DNA from: an uncultured Planctomycetia bacterium
Lineage (GTDB): Bacteria > Omnitrophota > Gorgyraeia > 2-02-FULL-51-18
Direction of reading: 5' to 3'
DNA: 64,000 nucleotides
Assembly: GCA_964431835.1 (NCBI GenBank)
Contig: CAYSKO010000010.1
Span: 267 to 64,266 of the forward strand
Shown here piece by piece: positions 2,279 to 63,894 of the stretch. Each line of letters starts with the position of its first letter. Positions within the stretch are counted from its first letter, which is position 1. Below the pieces are notes generated by a model, which was not told the origin of the DNA, did no database searches, and saw only the letters and a program-made list of their open reading frames with translations. The translations under genes and the position numbers were made by a program.

Positions 2279-4281
2279 CGGGCTGCTCTTTCTTTACGCT
2301 CTCTCTGCGGTTTCTCTTTTTCCATCTTCGCCTGCAGAATTTTGATCTGGTCTCTTAATTTTATGGCCTTCTCGAACTGAAGGAGCCGCGCCGCGTCTTC
2401 CATTTCGCGCTCGAGCTGGGCAAGCGCCTCATGCTCGTCGGCGGTTCCCTCGGTGATGCCCGCGGCCTCGTTCACGACGTCGCGCGCCTTGCGGATAGAC
2501 TCGATCCCCTCGCGGATCTCCTTCTTGATCGTGGTCGGCGTGATGCCGTGCTTCTTGTTGTACTCGACCTGCATCTTCCGGCGTCGGTTGGTCTCGCTGA
2601 TGGTGTTCTTCATCGAATCGGTGACGTTGTCGGCGTAGAAGATGACGTACCCGTTCGAATGACGCGCGGCGCGGCCGGAGACCTGGATGAGCGACGTCTG
2701 GCTACGCAGGAATCCTTCCTTGTCCGCGTCGAGCACGATAACGAGCGAAACCTCCGGAAGGTCGATGCCCTCGCGCAGAAGGTTGATCCCGACGAGGCAG
2801 TCGAATTTCTTCAGGCGCAGGTCACGGAGGATTTCCACGCGCTGGATCGCGTCGATCTCGGAATGGATGTAGGTGACCTTCACGCCCGCGTTCTCGAGGA
2901 ACTTCGAGAGGTCCTCGGCCATGCGCTTGGTAAGCGTAGTCACGATGGTGCGCTCCCCGACCTCGGTGCGTTTCTGGATCTCGGCGAGAAGATCGTCGAT
3001 CTGTCCCTTGGTCGGGCGAATATCGATCGGAGGATCCGTGAGGCCGGTCGGGCGGATCACCTGCTCGACGATCTTGGTGGAGTTCCTGATTTCGTATTCG
3101 GCGGGCGTCGCCGAGACAAAGAGCGTTTGACCGGTCACGATCTCGAACTCCTCGAAACGCAAGGGGCGGTTGTCGAGCGCCGACGGCAGGCGGAAACCGA
3201 AATCCACGAGCGTCTCCTTGCGCGCGCGGTCTCCGAAGTACATGCCCTTGATCTGCGGGATCGAGATGTGGGACTCGTCGATGACGAGCAGGTAGTCTTT
3301 CGGGAAGTAGTCGATCAGGCAAAACGGCCGCGAACCGGCGGGACGGCCCGTGATGATGCGCGAATAGTTCTCGATGCCGGAGCAGAAACCGAGCTCCTTC
3401 ATCATTTCGATGTCGTAGCGGGTGCGCTGCTCGATCCGCTGGGCCTCGACGAGCTTGTCCTGGGAATTCAGCGCCTTGATCCGCGCGTCCAGTTCTTCCC
3501 CGATCTCGACGCAAGCCTTCTCGAGGCGCGGCGCGGTCGTGACGAAATGTTTGGCCGGATAGACGGCGATGGAGTCCAGTTCGTGGAGGACTTTGCCGGT
3601 CAGCGGATCGATGCGGGAGATTTTCTCGATCTCGTCCCAGGCCGATTCCACACGGATCGCGGTCTCTTCATAGGCAAGGAACACCTCGATCGTGTCGCCG
3701 CGCACGCGGAACGTGCCGCGTTTGAAATCGACGTCGTTTCGCGTGTACTGGATGTCCACGAGCGCCTTCAGAATCTTGTCGCGCGGCGTCTTGTCTTTGA
3801 GTTTCAGGAAAACGAGGAGTTCCGCGTACTCGGCCGGCGAACCCAAGCCATAGATCGCCGAAACGGAAGAGACCACGATCGTGTCGCGCCTGGAAAGGAG
3901 CGACGAGGTTGCGCGCAGGCGCAGGCGGTCGATGTCCTCGTTGATTGAGGAATCTTTCTCGATGTAGGTATCGGTCTGGGGAATGTACGCTTCGGGCTGG
4001 TAGTAATCGTAGTACGAGACGAAATACTCGACGGCGTTCTCGGGGAAAATTTCTTTGAACTCGCTATAGAGCTGCGCGGCTAGGGTCTTGTTGTGGGAGA
4101 GGACGAGTGTGGGCCGCTGGACCTTTTCGATCACGTTCGCCACCGTGAACGTCTTGCCGCTTCCCGTGACGCCGAGAAGCGTCTGGTAGCGCTCGCCCTT
4201 CAAGAGCCCTTGCGTGAGCTTCTCGATGGCTTGGGGCTGATCCCCCTTCGGGGTCATCTCGGAGATGATTTTGAAATTCAT
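2275..4281 (-). CDS. uvrB: Excinuclease ABC subunit B
   Basis: 668 aa. Walker A GVTGSGKT is present, with UvrB-characteristic blocks and a C-terminal UVR coiled-coil region. Confidence 0.95.
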
Positions 4282-4310
4282 ACGACCATTATAACCCTTA
4301 AAACGGGTTA

Positions 4311-5162
4311 TTAAGCGACGATATCGAGGGAGACGTCGAGCTGTTTCGCGCTGTGGGTGATCGCGCCGATGGAAATGCGTTCGATACCGGTCTCGGCGTA
4401 TGCGCGGACGTTGTCGAGATTCACGCCGCCGGAGACTTCGAGCTCCATCGCGGGAGCAATCTCACGGCGCATCGCGACGCACTCGCGGATCTTCTCGACG
4501 GACATGTTGTCGAGCAGGATATAGTCGGCGCGGCTTTTCAGGGCCTCCTTCAGCTCGGCTAGGTTCTTCACTTCGACGCCGATGACGGTATTCTTGAGGA
4601 CTTTGTTTTTGGCCCGTTCGACGATCTCGACCAGGGGCTCATTTCTCAAGATGCGGAGATGGTTATCCTTGATGAGAACCTGGTCATACAGGCCGAACCG
4701 GTGGTTCGCCCCTCCGCCCATGAGAACGGCGTACTTCTCAAGGACGCGCAGGTTCGGCATCGTCTTCCGCGTGTCGAGGATTTTCACCTTCGTCCCGTGG
4801 ACCTTGTCCACGAACTGGCGCGTCAGCGTGGAGATACCGGAAAGGCGGCCGAGGAAATTGAGTGCGGTACGCTCCGCGACGAGGATCGAGATGGCGGGGC
4901 CTTCGATGTATGCGGCCTCGCGACCCTTCTCGACCTTCTCCCCGTCCTTCACGGTCGGCAAAAAACGGATCGTGTCGTCGACGATGCGGAACACGCGCTC
5001 GACGAGGCCGATCCCGCAGGCGACGCCGTCTTCTTTAAATTCGATGTCGGCTTTGAGATGAAGGTTCGGCGGGATGACGGCGCTCGAAGTGATGTCCTTC
5101 ACGCCCACATCTTCCTTCAGAGCGAGGCGGACGATCAGGTCGATGATGTTGGTGCGGATCAT
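4311..5162 (-). CDS. nadC: Nicotinate-nucleotide pyrophosphorylase (quinolinate phosphoribosyltransferase)
   Basis: 283 aa with a NadC/QPRTase signature (…[20 protein letters not shown]…KILDTRKT…LIKDNH…). Confidence 0.9.
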
Positions 5163-5181
5163 TTCGGCGCTTTCCGGCTTC

Positions 5182-7932
5182 TTAGGCCAGGGTGCGGAGG
5201 TTCTCTTCGAGACGGACTTTGCGGTTTTGCAGCTCCTCGAGACGCTTCTTTTCCTTCTCGACGATTTCCTTGGGAGCTTTTTTGACGAATTCCTCGTTCC
5301 CGAGGCGCCCTTCGAGGCCGCGGATCATCTTCTCGACCTCGCCTTGCGCGGCTTCGATGCGCGCACGCTCGACGGCGACGTCGATGAGCCCGGCCAGGAC
5401 GACGTACGTCTCCACGCGGCCCACGTTCGCAACCGCGGATTCCTTCGGCCGCTCGATGTTCTTGCCGATTTGGAGCGATGAGACGCGCGCCATTCGGACG
5501 ATATGGTCCGAATTCTCGCGAAGCACCTTCATCTCGCGGTCGCGCGAGGTCTTTACGTGAACGGTCACCGTTTCTTTCGGATTGATCTGCCAGGCCGAGC
5601 GGACGTTGCGGATCGCCTGGATCTCGCCGATCACGAGATCGATCTCCGCCTCGAGCTTCTTGTCGATGCGCGCTTTCTCGGCTTTAGGCCACGGCGCGAT
5701 CATGATCGACTCGCCTTCGTGCGGAATCTTCTGCCAGATCTCCTCCGTGATGAACGGCATGACCGGGTGCAGAAGCTTGAGCGTGCGGTCGAGCGTGTAG
5801 GCGAGGGTCCACTGCGTGCCCTTCGTCTTGATGTTGGGCTTGGAAAGCTCGAGATACCAGTCGCAGTACTGGTGCCAGAAAAAGTCGTACAGGGTCTGTA
5901 TCGCCTCGTTGAAACGCATCTTCTCGAGACTCTCGGTGACGTCGATCACGGTCTGGTTCATGCGCGAGAGGATCCAGCGGTCCGCCGTCGAGAGCTCCGA
6001 AGGCTTGGGGGCCTTCTTCGCCATTTTGGGGTCGATGTTCATGAGGACGAACCGCGACGCGTTCCAAATCTTGTTCGCGAAATTGCGTCCGACCTCGAAC
6101 TTCTCCTTCGAGGCGTACACGTCCTGGCCTTCGGCGGTGATGGAAATGAGCGCGTAACGAAGCGCGTCGGCGCCGAACTCGTCGATCACGTCGAGAGGAT
6201 CGACCGCGTTGCCGAGCGACTTCGACATCTTCGCGCCCGTCTCGTCGCGGACAATGCCGTGGATGTAGATCCGCTTGAACGGCTCTTTCCCCATGAATTC
6301 AATTCCCGCCATCATCATGCGCGCGACCCAGAAGAAGATAATTTCGTAACCAGTGACGAGCGACGAAGTGGGGTAAAAATACTTGAGGTCCGGGTTCTTG
6401 TCCGGCCAGCCGAGCGTCGAGAACGGCCAGAGCCACGAGGAGAACCAGGTGTCGAGCACGTCCTCGTCCTGCACGATCGCCGTACCCCCACAGTCCGGAC
6501 ATTTCTTCGGCGTTTCGCGCGCCACCATCATGCCCGGCTCTTTATAGACAGCGCCGGCTGTGAATTTAGACTGGGTTCCCGCCGCCTTCGCCTTCTCGCG
6601 GCAAGGCGTGCAGTACCAGACCGGGATCCGGTGGCCCCACCAAATCTGACGGGACACGCACCAGTCCTTGATGTTTTCCATCCACTCGAGATAGACCTTC
6701 GTCCATCGTTTCGGGACGAATTCGGTACGACCTTCCCTCACGGCGGCGATCGCGGGCTTCGCGAGCGGCTTCATATGGACGAACCACTGAAGCGAAAGGT
6801 ACGGCTCAACGACCGTCGAGCACCGGTAACAGTGACCGACGGCGTGCACATGATCTTTCACCTCAACGAGGAGGCGCCGCTCTTCGAGCTCGGCGACGAG
6901 CTTCTTGCGCGCCTCGAAACGGTCGAGGCCCTTATAGGGACCAGCCGCGTCGTTTAGCGTGCCGTCGGGATTCATTACGTTCAGGAATTCGAGGCCGTGC
7001 TTCTGCGCGAGCTGATAATCGACGGGATCGTGCGCGGGCGTGATCTTGAGCGCGCCCGTGCCGAACTTCGGGTCGATGTCGGCGTCCTGGATGATCTTGA
7101 GCCGCCGGTTCAGGATCGGGAGGATCGCGGTCTTCCCTTTCAGATGCTGGTAGCGCTCGTCTGTGGGATTGAAGCCGATTGCCGTGTCGCCGAGGAGCGT
7201 TTCGGGACGTGTCGTCGCGATCGTCACGTGCTCGTCGGTTCCGTCGATCCGGTATTTGATGTGGTAGAGGTGGCCCGTGATGTCCTTGTGCTGCGCCTCT
7301 TCGTCCGAGAGCGCGGTCTGGCAGCGCGGGCACCAGTTGATGATGCGCGTGCCGCGGTAGATGAGACCCTTTTCGTACAAGCGCACGAACACCTCGCGCA
7401 CGGACTTCGAGAGACCCTCGTCCATCGTGAAGCGCGTACGGCTCCAGTCGCAGGAATTCCCGAGCCGGTGCATCTGGCGGATGATCGTGTTGCCGTATTT
7501 CTCACGCCACTTCCAGACGCGTTCGACGAACTTTTCACGACCGAGCATGTGGCGGTTGAGCTGCTCTTCGCGGAGGGATCTCTCGACGACGTTCTGCGTC
7601 GCGATACCCGCGTGATCCGTGCCGGGCATCCAGAGGGCTTCGTAGCCCTGCATCCGCTTCGAGCGGACAAGGATGTCCTGGAGCGTGTGGTTGAGGGCGT
7701 GTCCCATATGCAGGATGCCGGTCACGTTCGGCGGCGGGATCACGACCGTATAGGGCTTCTTCTTGGATTTGGGATCCGCGTGGAAATAACCCCTCTTCGT
7801 CCACGTCTGGTACCACGTCTTCTCAACGTGCTTGGGGTCGTACGCCTTCGCGAGCTCTTCCCGGCCGCTCGCGGATTCGGGCGCGGGGTTCGGGTTCGGC
7901 GTCGGGCTGGGGACCGCGTTCGGATCGGTCAT
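5182..7932 (-). CDS. valS: Valine--tRNA ligase
   Basis: 916 aa class-I aminoacyl-tRNA synthetase. HIGH-type motif [15 protein letters not shown] and KMSKS (AKMSKSLGN) are present, with a C-terminal coiled coil typical of ValS. Confidence 0.95.
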
Positions 7933-14249: not shown

Positions 14250-14328
14250 TGGTCGGGGCGGCGGGATTCGAACCCACGATCTCCTGCACCCCAAGCAGGC
14301 GCTCTAGACCAAGCTGAGCCACACCCCG
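14250..14328 (-). tRNA. tRNA-Pro (anticodon GGG)
   Basis: Minus strand reads CGGGGTGTGGCTCAGCTTGGTCTAGAGCGCCTGCTTGGGGTGCAGGAGATCGTGGGTTCGAATCCCGCCGCCCCGACCA. It folds as a cloverleaf with anticodon loop TTGGGGT, a GGTTCGAATCC T-arm and an encoded CCA. Confidence 0.85.
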
Positions 14329-39874: not shown

Positions 39875-40984
39875 TCACGCGCCCGCTTTAGCGGCTTCGG
39901 CGACCTTCACGTGAATCTGCTTTTCGATCTCGCCCAGGATCTTCGGGTTCTCGCGAAGATACGCTTTGGCGTTCTCCCGGCCCTGGCCGAGCTTGTCGTC
40001 CCCGTAGAGAATCCAGCTGCCGCTCTGCTTGGTGATGTTGTACGTCTCGGCCATGTCGAGGATCGAACCCACTGCCGAAACGCCTTCGTCGTACATGAGA
40101 TCGAACTCCGCCTGTTTGAACGGCGCGGCGACCTTATTCTTCACGACCTTCACGCGCACGCGGCCACCGACGGTTTCCTCGCCGCGCTTGATCTGCGCGA
40201 TGCGCCGGATGTCGAGACGGACCGACGAATAGAACTTGAGCGCGCGGCCGCCCGGCGTGGTTTCGGGGTTGCCGAACATCACGCCGATCTTCTCGCGGAG
40301 CTGATTGATGAAAATGATGCAGGACTTCGATTTCGAGATCGTGCCCGTGAGCTTGCGGAGCGCCTGACTCATGAGACGCGCCTGGAGACCGACGTGGGAA
40401 TCGCCCATCTCGCCTTCGATTTCGGCCTTCGGCGTCAGCGCCGCGACGGAGTCGACGACGACGAGATCGACCGCGTTCGAACGCACGAGCATCTCGGCGA
40501 TTTCGAGCGCCTGCTCCCCGGTGTCGGGCTGGGACACGAGAAGATCGTCAAGATTCACGCCGAGCTTCTTGGCGTAGGTGGAATCGAACGCGTGCTCCGC
40601 GTCGATGAAGGCGGCCGTGCCCTTCTTCTTCTGCGCCTGCGCGATGATGCTCAAGGTAAGGGTGGTTTTACCGCTGGATTCCGGCCCGTAGATCTCGATG
40701 ATTCGGCCGCGCGGGATGCCGCCGATGCCGAGCGCGAGATCGAGTGCGATCGCTCCCGTCGGAATGGCGGGAACGTCGCTCTTGGTATTCTGGCCGAGAG
40801 TCATGATCGACCCTTTGCCGAAAAGTTTCTCTATCTGCAAAACGGTCGCGTCGAGCGATTTCCGGCGGTCGGCCATTCCGTCCTTCGTGGCGTCTTTCGA
40901 GTTGTCGCGCGCGTGGCTCACCTGACGCGCGTCCATCTTCTGCTGCTCTTTTTCTTCTTTTTTCATTGCGAAGCTCTTGGCCAT
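39875..40984 (-). CDS. recA: Recombinase RecA
   Basis: 369 aa with [10 protein letters not shown] Walker A and the canonical RecA core. Confidence 0.95.
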
Positions 40985-42500: not shown

Positions 42501-43364
42501 TTAGCGCTGAGATTCTTCCTGCACCAAAACCGCTTCGGCCCGGAGCGTCCGTGGTTCGTACTGCGCTTTGACGAGGGCGCCTTCCTCCAAATCGTCGACG
42601 ATGGCCGGCGATACGGCTAGCGTGACGTTTTTGCCTGAAAATTGGTCGCTCACGGTGATCTCTGCGCGCGGACGATCGACGTCCACGAGCCGCCCAACCG
42701 CGGTGTCGAGCACGGTTTCGGGCGTCGAGGGGCGTGTCACGCCGGCGGTCAGAATCTGGTTTTCGGTGCTCACGAGAGGCGCCGCCACGCCCACGCTCCC
42801 GACCGGAACCACGGTGGCCGCCGACGGAGAACCGGGACCGCCCGGCGCGGATGGGAACGAGCGAGTGCCGTTGGCGTCGAGCCCCGGAGGCTCGCCGAGG
42901 AATTCGGTCCGTCCGGGCTGGACGGATGCGGCGCCGCCACCGCCATTCCCGACGGGTAGCTCGGTCACGAAACGATTCGCCTGATCGTTCGAGTCTGCCG
43001 TCCTCACCGCCTGGGTCTGAGCGCCGACGTTCGCTGCCGAGCGGTCGTTGACGTTGACGAACGGCCCGCCGCCGTCGCGGAAGCCCTGAAAACCCGCCGT
43101 ACTGCGCGAGCCGCCGTCGAAAGCAGAGTTCGAAATCGAAGGAGGAACGTCGAGGGCCGACGTCGCGGGGAGACCGGTACCGGAGCTTTGAAATCCCGTC
43201 GATACGGCGGTGCTCGTTCCGCCCGCCGCGGCGGCCTGCTGCGCCGCTGGGGGAGCCGTGGCTCCCGGATCGCTCTGCGAATTTTCGGCGAAAGCGGATA
43301 AAGAAAAAACCGCCCCGAAGGCGGCAACTAAGATCGAAAGTGCGGAAACGCGGAACGTTTTCAT
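42501..43364 (-). CDS. Secreted low-complexity (G/A/S/P-rich) protein with conserved C-terminal small beta-domain (secP1)
   Basis: 287 aa. Signal peptide MKTFRVSALSILVAAFGAVFSLSAFA; GGAGGAAG RBS. The C-terminal approx. 60 aa (RAEITVSDQFSGKNVTLAVSPAIVDDLEEGALVKAQYE) is shared with the two upstream secreted proteins. Confidence 0.6.
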   Translation of the reverse strand: MKTFRVSALSILVAAFGAVFSLSAFAENSQSDPGATAPPAAQQAAAAGGTSTAVSTGFQSSGTGLPATSALDVPPSISNSAFDGGSRSTAGFQGFRDGGGPFVNVNDRSAANVGAQTQAVRTADSNDQANRFVTELPVGNGGGGAASVQPGRTEFLGEPPGLDANGTRSFPSAPGGPGSPSAATVVPVGSVGVAAPLVSTENQILTAGVTRPSTPETVLDTAVGRLVDVDRPRAEITVSDQFSGKNVTLAVSPAIVDDLEEGALVKAQYEPRTLRAEAVLVQEESQR

Positions 43365-43442
43365 GGTCTTCCTCCGTGGGGCTTTCGCGGCTCGCGTCGC
43401 CCCTTGAGTAGCAACTCCCGGAATTCGGGAGCGATAGTGAGA

Positions 43443-43850
43443 CTAGACACCCGCACCGTCTTCGGCGCCCCGGGCGAGCAGTCCTTCGTCGACAGGCAGG
43501 CCCACTTCGACGCTTTCCGCTTCCTCCGGATTCAGCTGAACCGTCCGGTTTTCTCCCGTTTCCCCGTCTTTCACAACGACTTCGCCGGTCTCCTCGTCTT
43601 TGGCCACGACGTTCCACCGCGTTTCTTCGTCGCCCAAAGCGCCTGCGGGCTGCGAAAAGGCGTCGGTTTGCGGACCCAACGCCGGATCCGCCGACGATTC
43701 GGCCGGTTCAAAGGCCGCTTCGTCGGCGGAAAGGGGTGCCAAGGCTTCCCCCGATTCACCGTCGGATCCAAACCCGTCCCCCAACTCGGCCCAAGCGGAG
43801 GGCGCGAAGAGGAGCGAGAGAACCGTGGCGATCGGAAGGAAGCGGGTCAT
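43443..43850 (-). CDS. Small secreted acidic protein with the same C-terminal beta-domain (secP2)
   Basis: 135 aa. Signal peptide MTRFLPIATVLSLLFAPSAWA; the mature part is D/E/G-rich. C-terminus is WNVVAKDEETGEVVVKDGETGENRTVQLNPEEAESVEVG. The start lies 6 nt after the secP3 stop. Confidence 0.55.
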   Translation of the reverse strand: MTRFLPIATVLSLLFAPSAWAELGDGFGSDGESGEALAPLSADEAAFEPAESSADPALGPQTDAFSQPAGALGDEETRWNVVAKDEETGEVVVKDGETGENRTVQLNPEEAESVEVGLPVDEGLLARGAEDGAGV

Positions 43851-43856
43851 GTCGGC

Positions 43857-44663
43857 TTACTCGTTCGTGATACGGACGCCCTGAGCGCGCTTGCCGCTAC
43901 CCGAGGCGAGATCCACGCGAACGCTGTCGCCGATGGCGAGAGTCGAAGCGGACATCACGTTCGGATCGACCGTGATACGGCGGTCGCCCTTAGTGACGTC
44001 GTCCTTGATGGTGATCTCGTTGTCCATTTTGTCGATGGAGACGATCGTGCCTCGGATCATCTGCTCGGAAGCGGTCGACTCGTCGTTGACTCCCATCCCG
44101 GTGGTGGCGACGGCCGCATCGGCGGAAGTCACGTTGGTCGTGGGATCGCCGGTGGCGCTATCGGAGGCGGACATGCCAGCCGAAGCCGAAGCGTCCATGC
44201 CTGAAGCGTCGGTCGTGGCGGTGACGTCGGTCGAAGCGGTATTCATGTCGGCTGTGCCTTCCGTCGTGGCGACCACGGAGGTGTCCGCGTCGTTGGCGTC
44301 ACCCGAAACGTCCGCGTCCGCGGCGGTCCGGGACGTCAGCGGGCTCGAGCCTGCCGCGCTTTCAGCGGCGCTGTCGGCGGCGGGATCGTTAGAGGAAGCG
44401 TCCGCGTTGATCGCGTCGTTGGTCGCGTTCGCCGGATTGGCGCCTGCGGTCGTCGCGTCGGACGGATCGGCCGTCGTCGTGGTCGTCATGGCCGCGTCCG
44501 TCGTACCCACGTTCGCGCCTGAATTCGTGTTGGCGTCCGTCGCCTCAACGACGGTTCCTTCCGCTCCGGCTCCCGTGGCGACTACGTCGATCTCCGCGTA
44601 GGCGGCTGTCGAAAAGAACGCGACTGAGAAAAGTGCGAGGATAAAGCTCATGGATTTGTTCAT
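43857..44663 (-). CDS. Secreted T/A/D-rich low-complexity protein with C-terminal small beta-domain (secP3)
   Basis: True start is MNKSMSFILALFSVAFFSTAAYA (signal peptide) with an AGGAG RBS. The C-terminus is IRGTIVSIDKMDNEITIKDDVTKGDRRITVDPNVMSASTLAIGDSVRVDL. The longer track ORF (to 44711) lacks an RBS. Confidence 0.6.
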   Translation of the reverse strand: MNKSMSFILALFSVAFFSTAAYAEIDVVATGAGAEGTVVEATDANTNSGANVGTTDAAMTTTTTADPSDATTAGANPANATNDAINADASSNDPAADSAAESAAGSSPLTSRTAADADVSGDANDADTSVVATTEGTADMNTASTDVTATTDASGMDASASAGMSASDSATGDPTTNVTSADAAVATTGMGVNDESTASEQMIRGTIVSIDKMDNEITIKDDVTKGDRRITVDPNVMSASTLAIGDSVRVDLASGSGKRAQGVRITNE

Positions 44664-44703
44664 TTTGGTCTCCTGAATGGGTTGTTTAAGTGCCTTTGAA
44701 CTT

Positions 44704-44760
44704 GGACTCACTATAGCGCCGGGTGGATTAAAGGACCCTTAAAACAAGATTAAAATAACC
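44704..44760 (-). promoter_or_regulatory. Candidate OmpR-family response-regulator binding site (TTTAA x3 at 11-bp phasing) with a -10 TATAGT, upstream of secP3
   Basis: Minus strand: ...TTTAATC-N4-TTTTAAG-N4-CTTTAATC.... TTTAA starts are spaced exactly 11 bp apart (plus-strand ttaaa at 44728, 44739, 44750). The third repeat overlaps the -35 position of TATAGT (44710-44715). It lies in the 126-bp gap between the HK stop and the secP3 start. Confidence 0.45.
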
Positions 44761-44789
44761 TAATCCATTCGGACGCGTGAGTGATGCGC

Positions 44790-46268
44790 TCAGGGAGATG
44801 TGGCGGGGAGGAAAACGGTAAACGTCGTGCCGAGCCCGGTATGACTACGTACCTTGATGTCGCCCTGGTGGGCTTGAGCGATGGATTTGGCGATCGAAAG
44901 GCCGAGACCGAAACCTTCGCTCGAGCGCGCCTTGTCCACGCGGTAGAAGCGCTCGAAGATGTACGGCAGTTCGTTGTCGGGGATTCCGATTCCGGAATCG
45001 CTGACTTCCACGACGGCCAGATCGTTGTCGCGCGAGAGCGTGAGCGCCACTCGGCCCCGCTGAGGCGTGTACTTGATCGCGTTGTCGATTAAATTGATGA
45101 AAAGACGGCGGAGCTGGTTCTCGTGCCCGTTGATCACGGTCGTGCCGTTCTGCAGGTAGTTGATCTGGATTTGCTTTTGGTCCGCGAGGATCTTCATGTG
45201 CGCGGCGACCTTCTCCATGAGAAGATTCAAATCCACCGGCTGGGCAGCGCTCGCCATCTCCTTCGAGTCGTAACGCGCCAGAAGAAGAAGGTTGTCCAGG
45301 ATACGACGGATCTTATCGATCTCCTCAAGCGCACTGAAGAGAATCCCCTCGTACTCTTCGGGAGTCCGGCTCTTTTTGAGCGTGACTTCGAGCTCGCCTT
45401 TCAGGATCGTGAGCGGCGTTTTTAGCTCGTGCGAGATATCCTGGTTGAAGCGCTGCTGGGACGTAAACGCGCGCTCCAGACGTTCGAGCATTTCGTTGTA
45501 GGTCTCGGAAAGACGGCGGATCTCGTCGTTGGTAAGCGGGACTTTAAGGCGCATCTTGAGGTTATCCGCTTTGATCTCACGGATGGAGCGCACCATGTCG
45601 TCGACCGGCCGCAGCGTCATCTTGACCAGGAACGACCCCGCGAGACCCGTCAGAAGAGACGTGAGCGGCACGAGTAGGATCAGGATTGCTTTCAGATTGT
45701 TCAGCTCTTTCTGGATCGCCGTCAGCGAGCTCGCCACCTGAACAATGTATGCCACGCGCCGGCGTTCGATGACCGGGGAGGTCACCGCTCGCAGGGAAAG
45801 CTTGTCCCCCTCGGACGATAGCACGTCGAAGTTGTCGAACCGCGGCGTTCCCTTCAGGACGTACTCAAAAATGACCGGCCGCATCGTCGTCGAATCGGGA
45901 AGATCTTTCGACGAGGCGATCGGTTTCCCCTGCGCGTCGAACACGTGGACCACGAAATTGATGAGGTCGGGGTCGCTCGACTTGTCCTTGATCCAGCGGT
46001 CCACGAGATTCGCCAGCTCCGCGCCGCTCGCGCGACTGATGTTCGATTTCCCCTGCGTGCGGGTCACCTCGGAGTGATGCGCCTCGCGGTACGCCTCGAT
46101 GGACGTCACGATGCCGGCGGCTTTCAGCTTCAGCAGGTCGTCGATGTTCTTGTAGAGGCTGTGGCTGAAATTGCGGTACAGCAAGACGCTGAAGAGTGAC
46201 AGCGTCGCCGCCGACATCAGGATGTACAGGAGGATGATCTTGAAACGGATCGTACGGAAGAAGAACAA
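44790..46268 (-). CDS. Sensor histidine kinase (two TM helices, periplasmic sensor, HAMP, HisKA, HATPase_c; EnvZ/CpxA-like)
   Basis: 492 aa with H-box ISHELKTPLT and N/G1/F/G2 boxes (...NLIDNAIKYT...DSGIGIP...GFGLGLSI). Confidence 0.9.
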   Translation of the reverse strand: MFFFRTIRFKIILLYILMSAATLSLFSVLLYRNFSHSLYKNIDDLLKLKAAGIVTSIEAYREAHHSEVTRTQGKSNISRASGAELANLVDRWIKDKSSDPDLINFVVHVFDAQGKPIASSKDLPDSTTMRPVIFEYVLKGTPRFDNFDVLSSEGDKLSLRAVTSPVIERRRVAYIVQVASSLTAIQKELNNLKAILILLVPLTSLLTGLAGSFLVKMTLRPVDDMVRSIREIKADNLKMRLKVPLTNDEIRRLSETYNEMLERLERAFTSQQRFNQDISHELKTPLTILKGELEVTLKKSRTPEEYEGILFSALEEIDKIRRILDNLLLLARYDSKEMASAAQPVDLNLLMEKVAAHMKILADQKQIQINYLQNGTTVINGHENQLRRLFINLIDNAIKYTPQRGRVALTLSRDNDLAVVEVSDSGIGIPDNELPYIFERFYRVDKARSSEGFGLGLSIAKSIAQAHQGDIKVRSHTGLGTTFTVFLPATSP

Positions 46269-46277
46269 GGCTGTCTT

Positions 46278-46949
46278 TTAGCCCTTGAAGATGTACCCGC
46301 GGCCGCGAACCGTCTGGATGAGCTTCTTCTTGTGTCCCCCGTCGATCTTCGTGCGGAGGTAGTTGATATACACGTCGATGACGTTCGTCGACACGTCGAA
46401 GTGGATGTCCCAGACGTGTTCTGAGATCATCGTGCGCGTGACGATCTGGTTCGCGTTCCTCATGAGGTACTCGAGGAGAGCGTACTCCTTCGCCGTCAGC
46501 GCGATCTCTTTGCCGGCCCGTTCGACCTTGTGGTTCAAGAGGTCGAGTGAGACGTCGGCGACCTGGAGCTTCGTCGAAGCTTGGCCGTCCTTTTTCTTTC
46601 GGAGCATCGCCCGGACACGCGCGAGGAGTTCCTCGAACGCGAAGGGCTTCGTCACATAGTCGTCGGCGCCCGCGTCCAGACCGGCGACCTTGGACTTCAC
46701 TTCGTCCTTGGCCGTCAGCATGAGAATCGGCGTGCTCACCTTCTGGTCCCGGAGCTTCTTGCACAGCGTCATGCCGTCCAGCTTCGGGATCATGAGGTCG
46801 AGCAGGATCGCGTCGTACTCGTTCGTCGTGGCCATAAAATGGCCATCTTCGCCGTCGAGAGACACGTCGACCGCATACCCTTCTTCTTTCAGACCGCGCT
46901 TGATGAAGCTAGCTATCTTCTCCTCGTCTTCGATTACGAGTATTCGCAT
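46278..46949 (-). CDS. OmpR/PhoB-family response regulator
   Basis: True start is MRILVIEDEEKIASFIKRGL.... Receiver residues D...D52-like (LLDLMIP), T/S and K are present, with a C-terminal winged-helix (…TVRGRGYIF). The track ORF extends through a GTG into pgpA. Confidence 0.9.
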   Translation of the reverse strand: MRILVIEDEEKIASFIKRGLKEEGYAVDVSLDGEDGHFMATTNEYDAILLDLMIPKLDGMTLCKKLRDQKVSTPILMLTAKDEVKSKVAGLDAGADDYVTKPFAFEELLARVRAMLRKKKDGQASTKLQVADVSLDLLNHKVERAGKEIALTAKEYALLEYLMRNANQIVTRTMISEHVWDIHFDVSTNVIDVYINYLRTKIDGGHKKKLIQTVRGRGYIFKG

Positions 46950-46962
46950 TGTCAGCCTCCTT

Positions 46963-47424
46963 TTATCGGTTGAGATACAGGATGATTTGAAGGACAGCGT
47001 TCCCCATAATTCCGGCCGCCACGTCGTCGGCCATGATGCCGTAGGCACCCTCCATCCGGTCTAGTCGACCAACCGGCCAGGGCTTAAAAATATCGAGAAT
47101 TCGGAAGAGAAGGAAAGCGCCAGCGAACCAGAGAAGCTCGCGCGGAACGAACAAAAGCGTCAGAGACATGCCCGCGGCCTCATCGAGCACGAAGCGTTGG
47201 GGATCTTTCGATCCGAAAGCGCGCCGCGCGGGAGCGCAGAGTGCGAAACCTAAAAGGGTCGTAACCGCCGCGAAGACCGGGAGCGCCTGGGGCCAGAACC
47301 ACGCCACGAAGAGGGGCGGTAGGCTGCCGAACGTTCCGGGCATGAACGGCGCGTAACCCAGGTAGAAGAAGGACGCCAGGCAGCGAACCGCCCCGCCTGT
47401 GCGCGGACGGCCGTGTTCGTTCAC
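46963..47424 (-). CDS. pgpA: Phosphatidylglycerophosphatase A
   Basis: PgpA signature ...YLGYAPFMPGTFGSL...FRILDIFKPWP.... The likely GTG start at 47424 overlaps the upstream stop (GTGA). Confidence 0.8.
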   Translation of the reverse strand: MNEHGRPRTGGAVRCLASFFYLGYAPFMPGTFGSLPPLFVAWFWPQALPVFAAVTTLLGFALCAPARRAFGSKDPQRFVLDEAAGMSLTLLFVPRELLWFAGAFLLFRILDIFKPWPVGRLDRMEGAYGIMADDVAAGIMGNAVLQIILYLNR

Positions 47425-47984
47425 CGCGGGGCCGGTGCGCGGCGGACGGCCGCCAGGTACTGGACGCCGCTCCAGACCGTGTAGGCGACGACCAGAAGCA
47501 TCCCGTAATGAATGAACTGCCGCGCAGGGCTTTCCCATGCGGGTTTCCAGGATGCCGTTTCACGCACGGCGATGATCGTGACCGCCGCGACAATGTAGAA
47601 GAGCTGGAAAGCCGTTTTTTTCTTGCCGCTCGAATGCGCAGCCTGTTTATCGCCGGATTTCATGAAAAGACGCGTGATGGTGAGAAGGACGTCCCTGCCC
47701 GCCACCACGAGGACCGTCCAAAGCGGCAGGAAGCCGAGCGCCACGAACGACCCGAAAGCGGAAAGGGTCAGTAGTTTATCGGCGATTGGGTCCATCAGCT
47801 GTCCGAACGGCGTGATCTGGCCCGTGCTGCGCGCGATCTTTCCGTCCAGGTAGTCCGTCGCGGATGCCGTCAGGAACACCGCGAGGGCGACGAATTTAAG
47901 AGTTGCGTCGGCCTCGAGGAACAGTACGAGGAACACACCGGCCAGCACGATTCGGACGCAAGTGAGCACATTGGGAACGTTCAT
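47421..47984 (-). CDS. CDP-alcohol phosphatidyltransferase (PgsA-like), paralog 2, adjacent to pgpA
   Basis: 187 aa with motif ATDYLDGKIARSTGQITPFGQLMDPIADK. Confidence 0.8.
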   Translation of the reverse strand: MNVPNVLTCVRIVLAGVFLVLFLEADATLKFVALAVFLTASATDYLDGKIARSTGQITPFGQLMDPIADKLLTLSAFGSFVALGFLPLWTVLVVAGRDVLLTITRLFMKSGDKQAAHSSGKKKTAFQLFYIVAAVTIIAVRETASWKPAWESPARQFIHYGMLLVVAYTVWSGVQYLAAVRRAPAPR

Positions 47985-63816: not shown

Positions 63817-63894
63817 TGGTCGGGATGGTGGGATTTGAACCCACGGCCTCTTGGTCCCGAACCAAGCGCGCTAGCCAAGCTGCGCTACATCCCG
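63817..63894 (-). tRNA. tRNA-Pro (anticodon CGG)
   Basis: Minus strand reads CGGGATGTAGCGCAGCTTGGCTAGCGCGCTTGGTTCGGGACCAAGAGGCCGTGGGTTCAAATCCCACCATCCCGACCA. Anticodon loop is TTCGGGA; a canonical cloverleaf with encoded CCA. Confidence 0.85.

Follow-up and report, generated by a model that had tools for sequence, protein, structure and literature searches.

A two-component system and a triad of secreted proteins sharing a predicted CusF-like module without copper ligands in an uncultured Omnitrophota bacterium

Introduction

In Vibrio cholerae, the two-component system (TCS) VC1638-39 controls the periplasmic BOF protein VCA0732, which has been linked to envelope stress (PMC5636140). The present study concerns a locus from an uncultured Omnitrophota bacterium (contig CAYSKO010000010.1), in which the genes for a response regulator (RR) and a sensor histidine kinase (HK) are followed by three genes for secreted proteins, named secP3, secP2 and secP1. 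It resembles VC1638-39 with VCA0732, as well as QseBC with YgiW/VisP, in that a TCS would have a small periplasmic OB protein of unclear biochemistry as its principal target; it differs from both in that it is found in other phyla, and in that the secP genes lie downstream of the TCS, on the same strand and behind a triple operator. All positions are given in the numbering of the window, that is, the whole 64-kb stretch of DNA analysed, and the letters displayed cover positions 42501-47984.

Two further groups of proteins are close to parts of this locus. The first comprises the heavy-metal TCS, such as CusRS, and the periplasmic protein CusF (Pfam CusF_Ec, PF11604), whose Cu(I)/Ag(I) site consists of His36, Trp44, Met47 and Met49. 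The second is formed by DUF5666 (PF18914) and DUF1344, small secreted families with a strand pattern similar to that of the secP module, and by the periplasmic BOF family (Pfam PF04076).

The operator finds its nearest counterpart in the pmra-box, in which two xTTAAy hexamers, with 5 nt between them, overlap or replace the -35 element, as with the hexamers CTTAAT and CCTAAG of the pbgP box in Klebsiella pneumoniae (PMC10570014). Compared with all of these, the locus is best described as an uncharacterised TCS of the CusRS clade with a PmrA-like triple operator, predicted to control unnamed, ligand-less CusF-like periplasmic proteins.

Results

A triple direct repeat behind the kinase gene

A phased direct-repeat site had been noticed by the initial annotation in the 126-bp gap between the HK gene and secP3 (44664-44789, minus strand), and its presence was confirmed. 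The putative RR operator consists of three direct hexamers, TTTAAT, TTTAAG and TTTAAT (44727..44755, minus strand), with 5-nt spacers, an 11-bp phase and a -35 location; the gap reads TTTTAAT-CTTG-TTTTAAG-GGTC-CTTTAAT on the minus strand. With two mismatches allowed, this triple repeat was the sole match in the window, and none was found in 100 shuffles. A putative -10 hexamer, TATAGT (44710..44715, minus strand), lies 11 nt downstream of the third repeat. A generic sigma-70 scan of the gap returned no -35/-10 pair, as expected if the promoter is activator-dependent, and the promoter/terminator scan ruled out that the gap holds either a canonical sigma-70 promoter or an intrinsic terminator.

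A relaxed form of the box (NTNTAAN-N4, three times) was searched on both strands of a non-redundant set of window and locus sequences totalling 232 kb. All nine occurrences were located directly after an orthologous HK gene and on the coding strand, in the window and in L002, L010, L011, L012, L014, L017, L019 and L020. The hexamers were TTTAAT, TTTAAG, TCTAAT or TCTAAC, and a TAnnnT hexamer was found 11 nt after the box in 9/9 loci (TATAAA, TATAAC, TATAGT, TACAGT, TATGTT, TATAAT or TAAACT). Near-variants occupied the equivalent place in L015 and L016, while the loci with unrelated kinases (L003-L008) had no box. The genomes in which these loci lie, from Eisenbacteria, Omnitrophica and Nitrospirae, span GC contents from AT-rich up to about 60%. 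As judged from these occurrences, the triple box is a phylogenetic footprint across several phylum-level lineages with very different GC contents, and this footprint is the strongest evidence that the RR would drive the downstream genes from an activator-dependent promoter. The predicted wiring from the RR to the secP genes is well supported in this way, with binding and activation as its presumed steps.

The half-site (xTTAAy), the 5-nt spacing and the placement at -35 are equal to those of the pmra-box recognised by PmrA (BasR), whereas the operator described here has three repeats and the pmra-box two. The proteins also differ: the RR scored 199.7 bits against the PmrA model (cut-off 330) and the HK 135.9 bits against the PmrB model (cut-off 314), and the DNA-binding domain of the RR was nearest to PcoR (2jzy, E=2.9e-25) among solved structures. 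The xTTAAy direct repeats distinguish the operator from that of CusRS-CusF as well.

The secreted proteins and their shared module

Three consecutive signal-peptide genes with low-complexity products had been proposed downstream of the gap, and both points were borne out by the cleavage sites, the gene order and the composition. All on the minus strand, secP3 (43857..44663, 268 aa), secP2 (43443..43850, 135 aa) and secP1 (42501..43364, 287 aa) encode Sec-type signal peptides of residues 1-23, 1-21 and 1-26, each ending in an AxA cleavage site with E as the next residue (AYA, AWA and AFA, read from the sequence). In secP3 the signal peptide is followed by an A/T/D/S-rich acidic linker (mature protein A 19%, T 16%, D 12%, S 11%), in secP2 by a D/E/G/A-rich linker (mature protein E 16%, A 15%, G 14%), and in secP1 by a G/A/S/P-rich linker (mature protein A 14%, G 12%, V 10%, S 10%). 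The mature forms of secP3, secP2 and secP1 are acidic: their net charges are -28, -24 and -11 and their pI values 4.05-4.4. None of the three proteins contains His. From their composition, the acidic linkers are presumably disordered. The GC content at third codon positions (GC3) of the three genes was 0.70-0.80, in keeping with true coding frames; spurious open reading frames were ruled out by the signal peptides, GC3 and orthologues, and tandem-repeat DNA was discarded as the origin of the low complexity, the DNA being biased in composition and not tandemly repeated.

Each protein ends in a module of related sequence, at about residues 201-268 of secP3 (nt 43860-44063), 74-135 of secP2 (nt 43446-43631) and 220-287 of secP1 (nt 42504-42707), all on the minus strand. 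The C-terminal ~65 residues were only 22-24% identical pairwise, with Smith-Waterman z values of 5.0-6.6 and observed scores reached by 0-2 of 500 shuffles. A profile built from the three modules retrieved 156 proteins at E<=1e-3 in an exhaustive HMMER search of 1.84 billion cluster representatives (clusters at 50% identity), so that the family has at least 156 representatives. As proposed, the modules of all three proteins are related: the significant pairwise scores and the recovery of so many proteins by a three-sequence profile argue against a chance pattern, and the modules are, on sequence grounds, truly homologous. The secP2 module matched the module hidden Markov model (HMM) at E=1e-25, secP2 itself being in the training set, and the same HMM revealed no further copy elsewhere in the window.

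The typical family member is a protein of about 109 aa with a signal peptide, a short linker, a single module and a short tail that is usually lysine-rich. A hydrophobic N-terminus was present in 109 of the 120 representatives beginning with Met, and 21 of the 124 single-domain representatives were acidic. The acidic members are orthologues of the window proteins, either of the secP3 type (P0004, P0006, P0007, P0008 and P0012, which are 46-63% identical in the module and have linkers that differ in length, the first four being located on 1-3 kb contigs) or of the secP1 type (P0009, P0014, P0102 and L002 1741-2574). A few proteins, such as P0003, carry 2-5 tandem modules. The mature N-terminus of secP3 (44574-44594 region), EIDVVATGAGAEG, is about the same as ELDAVETGAGAEG in the orthologue P0004 while the remaining linker is unconserved, and it may represent a short functional motif.

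The secreted components had been reported to match no described family, and indeed neither Pfam (E<=1) nor NCBIfam models matched secP1-3. Among 137 relatives, CusF_Ec matches, from weak to significant, were observed in 29, with P0137 alone clearly above threshold, and DUF5666 matches in 10. The initial annotation had compared the module with both CusF and BOF/YgiW; CusF_Ec and DUF5666 were its nearest profile relatives, so the first comparison stood, whereas BOF was not among the 25 most often matched of the 49 families that the relatives matched (E<=0.01). The link to CusF_Ec is transitive through these relatives, the window proteins lying below the Pfam gathering threshold. DUF5666 and DUF1344 share the size and strand pattern of the module, but the window proteins had no significant match to them and both families are themselves uncharacterised. 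An ExtJ-like identity of some small members was not accepted (28.6 bits against an NCBIfam cut-off of 52.5).

The family became visible through the exhaustive HMMER search: a word-indexed homologue search with the secP3 module gave no match, and one with a 35-sequence family profile gave only seven proteins. A metagenome-contig scan with the secP3 subgroup returned a single locus (L018), an unrelated multi-domain protein that was set aside. In the literature searched on CusF-like proteins with two-component systems, DUF5666 and Eisenbacteria, no description of the module was found. From its sequences, the family is large, has no name and consists of small secreted proteins; a single ~109-aa gene is the usual state, and the triad expands it to three acidic paralogues.

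Predicted fold of the module

An AlphaFold2 model of the secP3 module, based on a 10-sequence alignment, had a mean predicted local distance difference test (pLDDT) score of 81 and the order beta1-beta2-beta3-helix-beta4-beta5, predicting a five-stranded OB barrel. In a Foldseek search of the PDB (3Di+AA) the best match was Escherichia coli CusF (1zeq, E=4.6e-4, TM-scores 0.69/0.61, 24% identity), followed by further CusF and SilF entries, while a sequence-profile search of the PDB gave only insignificant cold-shock/OB matches (best E 0.025). The secP proteins thus resemble CusF and SilF in being small Sec-exported proteins with a predicted five-stranded OB barrel, and they differ from CusF in the long acidic linkers that precede the domain.

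They differ also in the metal site. In the register given by hhalign, H36 of CusF is replaced by D, the loop with W44 and M47 is deleted and M49 is replaced by R/K; across the family, the domain contains 0.75% His, 1.3% Met, 0.1% Cys and 0.1% Trp. By these alignments, the CusF-type His/Met/Trp copper site is absent from the modules, in agreement with the earlier proposal of a CusF-like OB fold lacking these ligands.

The two-component system

The RR gene (46278..46949, minus strand, 223 aa, with the true ATG at 46949) encodes an OmpR/PhoB-family regulator of the CusR/CopR/PcoR type with Response_reg and Trans_reg_C domains, in accordance with its first assignment as an OmpR-type regulator. The HK gene (44790..46268, minus strand, 492 aa) has, from its Pfam domains, a transmembrane helix, a periplasmic PDC/PAS-like domain (~residues 30-190), a second transmembrane helix, HAMP, HisKA and HATPase_c. 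The kinase had been called EnvZ/CpxA-like, which was not supported: its best NCBIfam model was that of CztS/SilS/CopS (TIGR01386, 290.6 bits, cut-off 292.55), compared with 143.8 bits for CpxA, and the best model for the RR was CztR/SilR/CopR (TIGR01387, 269 bits, cut-off 279.2). The secP genes adjoin a TCS with the same HK architecture and OmpR-type regulator as the heavy-metal systems, although both proteins narrowly miss the CusS/CusR subfamily cut-offs.

At E<=1e-40 the HK had 2791 homologues, and the top 120 were 46-77% identical over about the full length, including the sensor domain; where named, they came from Omnitrophica and Nitrospirae metagenome-assembled genomes (MAGs) and were labelled "heavy metal sensor kinase". 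An AlphaFold2 model of the sensor domain (pLDDT 82.6) matched in Foldseek the sensor domains of WalK, KinD and CusS (5ku5, E=1.6e-5). In 54 orthologues, scored without a residue-by-residue alignment to CusS, no sensor column was predominantly His, Met or Cys (maxima of 46% and 44%, both His), whereas Tyr, Gly, Leu, Val, Arg and Gln were invariant at some positions, and Trp, Asp and Glu near-invariant. At the level of sequence, then, nothing supports CusS-type metal coordination, which sets these sensors apart from the heavy-metal TCS.

The window HK deviates from its orthologues in residues 59-89 (~nt 46002-46094, minus strand), where TYWE is changed to AYRE (W61R) and NNINF to SGAEL (N82G, N84E, F85L); the consensus motifs are near-invariant in the 54 orthologues and retained in L010 and L011. 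A metagenome-contig scan with the HK sensor domain returned no relative.

Conservation of the neighbourhood

The TCS-secP order was found to be kept in L002, L010, L011, L014 and L020, and OB-like variants of it in L016, L017 and L019. A Candidatus Eisenbacteria MAG (L002, HK 77% identical) has three signal-peptide module genes, of the secP3 type, the secP1 type and a third type (HMM E=6e-22, 3e-17 and 2e-5), the first two 19 nt apart. With HKs 67-68% identical, L010 and L011 maintain the order rimO-pgsA-pgpA-RR-HK...cinA-recA, with a module gene (E=6e-10) in the former and module genes at E=1e-10 and 7e-18 in the latter. An Omnitrophica MAG (L014, HK 52%) and a metagenome contig (L020, HK 49%) each carry a 41-aa lipoprotein-like peptide, a module protein of 105-108 aa (E=3e-22 and 1e-19, respectively) and a second small OB-like protein.

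In the Nitrospirae locus L019 a Pfam-called DUF5666 protein, together with related small secreted barrels (E ~2e-8), holds the position equivalent to that of the secP genes after the HK. A similar set (E ~2e-8) was found in a second Nitrospirae locus (L016 5001-9909, JACRLN010000034.1), where the HK gene runs into the 5' end of a gene for a P-type cation ATPase (Cation_ATPase_N/C, E1-E2) and a triple-box variant and two small secreted OB-like proteins lie behind the ATPase. The second small secreted type, of about 120 aa with the motif G-x-V-x-S-[IV]-x-x-A-D-P-x-K-G-T-K-S-E-I-V-V, joins or replaces the module protein after the HK (L014 3228-3639, L016 9086-9466, L017 6528-6923, L019 4192-4569 and L020 7029-7496), and in L017, from Omnitrophica, it occurs alone. 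It had no Pfam match, and the order of its strands is reminiscent of an OB or DUF5666 domain. Module proteins were also found away from any TCS, for example in L009, from the same MAG as L002; the association of the TCS with the module is for this reason strong but not obligatory. In the L014 MAG (JAPLMJ010000011.1), a polysaccharide deacetylase and a PMT/PMT_2 glycosyltransferase (3933-5903) follow the small secreted proteins; these are the families that include ArnD and ArnT, and they hint at envelope modification genes near the same TCS.

The region had been suspected to be accessory, and its HK and RR genes to be lower in GC. Their total GC was indeed 0.58, compared with ~0.61, but their GC3 was normal (0.80-0.84, with 0.82 for recA) and the deficit was located at the second codon position, so that it reflects amino-acid composition; other 1-kb bins of the window had equal or lower GC. 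With GC3 equal to that of recA and the rimO...recA synteny shared with the 67-68% HK relatives, the accessory character was not sustained.

Organization of the region

The genes pgsA, pgpA, RR, HK, secP3, secP2 and secP1 are all on the minus strand. Upstream of the RR gene lie pgsA (47421..47984), for CDP-diacylglycerol-glycerol-3-phosphate 3-phosphatidyltransferase (TIGR00560, 110.7 bits, above cut-off; PF01066 match), and pgpA (46963..47424, 153 aa), for phosphatidylglycerophosphatase A (PF04608, E=2.6e-38), the gene call for the latter being taken from an identical 12.4-kb contig in a public assembly (L001). The two genes overlap by 4 nt, and pgpA is separated by 13 nt from the RR gene, which ends 9 nt before the HK gene. 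The terminator scan detected no terminator-like site between pgsA and the 3' end of the RR gene; a weak one (46267-46285) covers the RR stop and the HK start. Given this tight packing and the lack of such a site, the TCS is probably co-transcribed with the phosphatidylglycerol synthesis genes pgsA-pgpA. The gene order of this string (window 44790-47984) recurs at L010 444-3647 and L011 3309-6490.

At the other end, secP2 starts 6 nt after the secP3 stop, and secP1 follows after a 78-nt spacer. A hairpin with a perfect 6-bp stem, CTCCCG-AATTC-CGGGAG (43415..43431, minus strand, read from the sequence), is located in this spacer; it has no T-run and was not among the sites of the terminator scan, and because it lacks the T-run it may be an attenuator, a stabiliser or an RNA processing element rather than a terminator. 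A terminator-like hairpin with a T-run (GCCGCCTTCGGGGCGGT TTTTTCTTTA) was noted at 43309-43325 (minus strand), within the part of secP1 that encodes the signal peptide; six terminator-like sites were seen in the region, against 6.3 expected by chance.

Beyond secP1 lie cinA and recA, in convergent and parallel orientations. The recA frame (39875-40984, minus strand) encodes 369 aa, compared with 366 aa for the RecA of L010; relative to E. coli RecA, the window protein has a K/E-rich N-terminal extension of ~30-35 residues. Two tRNA-Pro genes (14250-14328 and 63817-63894, both on the minus strand; anticodons GGG and CGG) were the only matches to Rfam families at threshold in the window.

Discussion

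We favour, with moderate confidence, the reading that the locus is a conserved signalling module whose local output consists mainly of exported OB-fold proteins acting as periplasmic effectors, including the wiring proposed above. In such a module, the PDC/PAS-like sensor of the HK would detect a periplasmic or envelope cue and phosphorylate the RR, as its domain architecture suggests. The RR would then bind the three 11-bp-phased xTTAAy hexamers that occupy the -35 position and stop 11 nt short of TATAGT, and, as PhoB or PmrA do, would activate secP3-secP2 and probably also secP1. The three products would be exported by Sec, each with an acidic linker that terminates in a CusF-like OB barrel, and, since there is no Cu(I)/Ag(I) site, the barrel would most likely bind a partner protein or some envelope ligand other than a metal. 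The secP proteins might in this way act as periplasmic stress-response effectors, similar to the BOF proteins YgiW/VisP and VCA0732. The likeness to those systems has an OB model, an export signal and a conserved RR-type box as its observed parts, and RR control as its predicted one; from it we infer the envelope-stress function. In biochemical terms, the proteins might serve as effectors in the envelope, as feedback partners of the kinase or as buffers of cations. The position of the TCS in one string with pgsA-pgpA fits a role in the envelope, and the effector reading is preferred because the small proteins vary in number and type, because some orthologous TCS lack them and because the module also occurs alone.

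Several observations weigh against this reading. The triple box in L012 (6176-8388) and L013 (3788-6000), with HKs 54% identical, precedes not OB proteins but a HAD-type phosphatase (Put_Phosphatase) and a class-III aminotransferase, and L015 (HK 50%) has no OB target, only a 75-aa K/T-rich secreted peptide. Inclusion of secP1 under the secP3-secP2 promoter is probable but uncertain, given the 78-nt hairpin-bearing spacer that precedes it. The sequence link to CusF is weak: the window proteins reach no Pfam model, and the hhalign alignment of the family profile with CusF, though in register, was weak (E=1e-3, probability 20%). In addition, 93 of the 124 single-domain family members are basic whereas the proteins of the window lineage are strongly acidic, so that one shared ligand is not obvious, and the source organism is known from metagenomes only.

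A first alternative is that the TCS is a true sensor of heavy metals or divalent cations and that the secP proteins are periplasmic cation buffers or chaperones, an analogue of CusRS-CusF in which the acidic linkers would hold the cations. The subfamily scores of the HK and RR just under the heavy-metal cut-offs, the annotation of their orthologues, the proximity of the RR DNA-binding domain to PcoR, the CusF or SilF fold as nearest solved structure of the module and the net charges of -11 to -28 would all be in line with it, as would the L016 arrangement, where a cation ATPase gene overlapped by the HK gene precedes the box and the genes for OB-like proteins. Set against these are the replaced or deleted CusF ligand positions, the near absence of soft-metal ligands from the domain family-wide, and the periplasmic domain of the HK, in which no position exceeds 46% His, Met or Cys across the 54 orthologues. 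The basic majority of the family, with K-rich tails, would moreover repel cations. The neighbours rimO, pgsA, pgpA, cinA and recA are also unlike those expected from CusCBA, since no RND, MFP or multicopper-oxidase genes lie beside the system here, nor in the syntenic L010 and L011. A cation-handling function is on balance unlikely.

Alternatively, the OB proteins might bind the periplasmic PDC domain of the HK and tune its activity, following the feedback or co-sensor logic of CpxP-CpxA, ZraP-ZraS or YycH/I-WalK. The first gene after the HK is almost always that of a small periplasmic protein under the RR box, the sensor model resembles the extracellular domain of WalK, itself regulated by accessory proteins, and the window HK has lost near-invariant residues (W61R; NNINF to SGAEL) in the very lineage where the small proteins are acidic and multiplied. 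An obligatory partner is nevertheless harder to reconcile with the orthologous systems that have no OB neighbour (L012/L013, L015) and with module proteins that occur apart from a TCS (L009), while the variation of the small proteins, from one to three in number and also in type, fits effectors better; we hold the feedback role to be doubtful. That the TCS and the secP genes are a horizontally acquired accessory island with no ancestral link is very improbable, for although the total GC of the HK and RR genes (0.58) is below the window mean, their GC3 is like that of recA with the deficit in GC2, other 1-kb bins are as low or lower, the flanks rimO-pgsA-pgpA and cinA-recA are kept in L010 and L011 and no mobile-element genes are adjacent, so that chance adjacency or horizontal acquisition is effectively excluded.

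Beyond the effector reading of the local genes, a wider one can be put forward only tentatively, namely that the HK-RR pair with its triple xTTAAy operator belongs to an ancient and widespread uncharacterised clade, mis-annotated as heavy metal sensors, that monitors the charge or lipid state of the envelope and has ligand-less CusF-like OB proteins as its outputs. Sensing of this kind is suggested by the pgsA-pgpA operon, the ArnT-like and deacetylase genes of L014 and the PmrA-type box. Such a clade may include thousands of orthologues in Omnitrophica, Nitrospirae, Eisenbacteria and their relatives, its OB outputs may form a novel periplasmic family that binds the envelope or modulates the kinase, and the acidic triad may be a lineage-specific elaboration.

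For a TCS that is very common in uncultivated phyla, the locus provides a concrete, testable regulon and operator, and indicates that the label "heavy metal sensor" is probably misleading in its case. A dip in total GC, as seen in the HK and RR genes, can arise from amino-acid composition alone, and a CusF-like fold next to a CusS-like kinase need not mean metal handling. The module is well defined, widespread and testable, and it marks out a family, so far without a name, of small CusF-like OB proteins that are secreted and unable to bind copper in the way of CusF. Its pairing with the TCS follows a familiar pattern, and adds a deep-branching case to the poorly understood pairing of envelope TCS with periplasmic OB proteins exemplified by QseBC-YgiW and VC1638-39/VCA0732.

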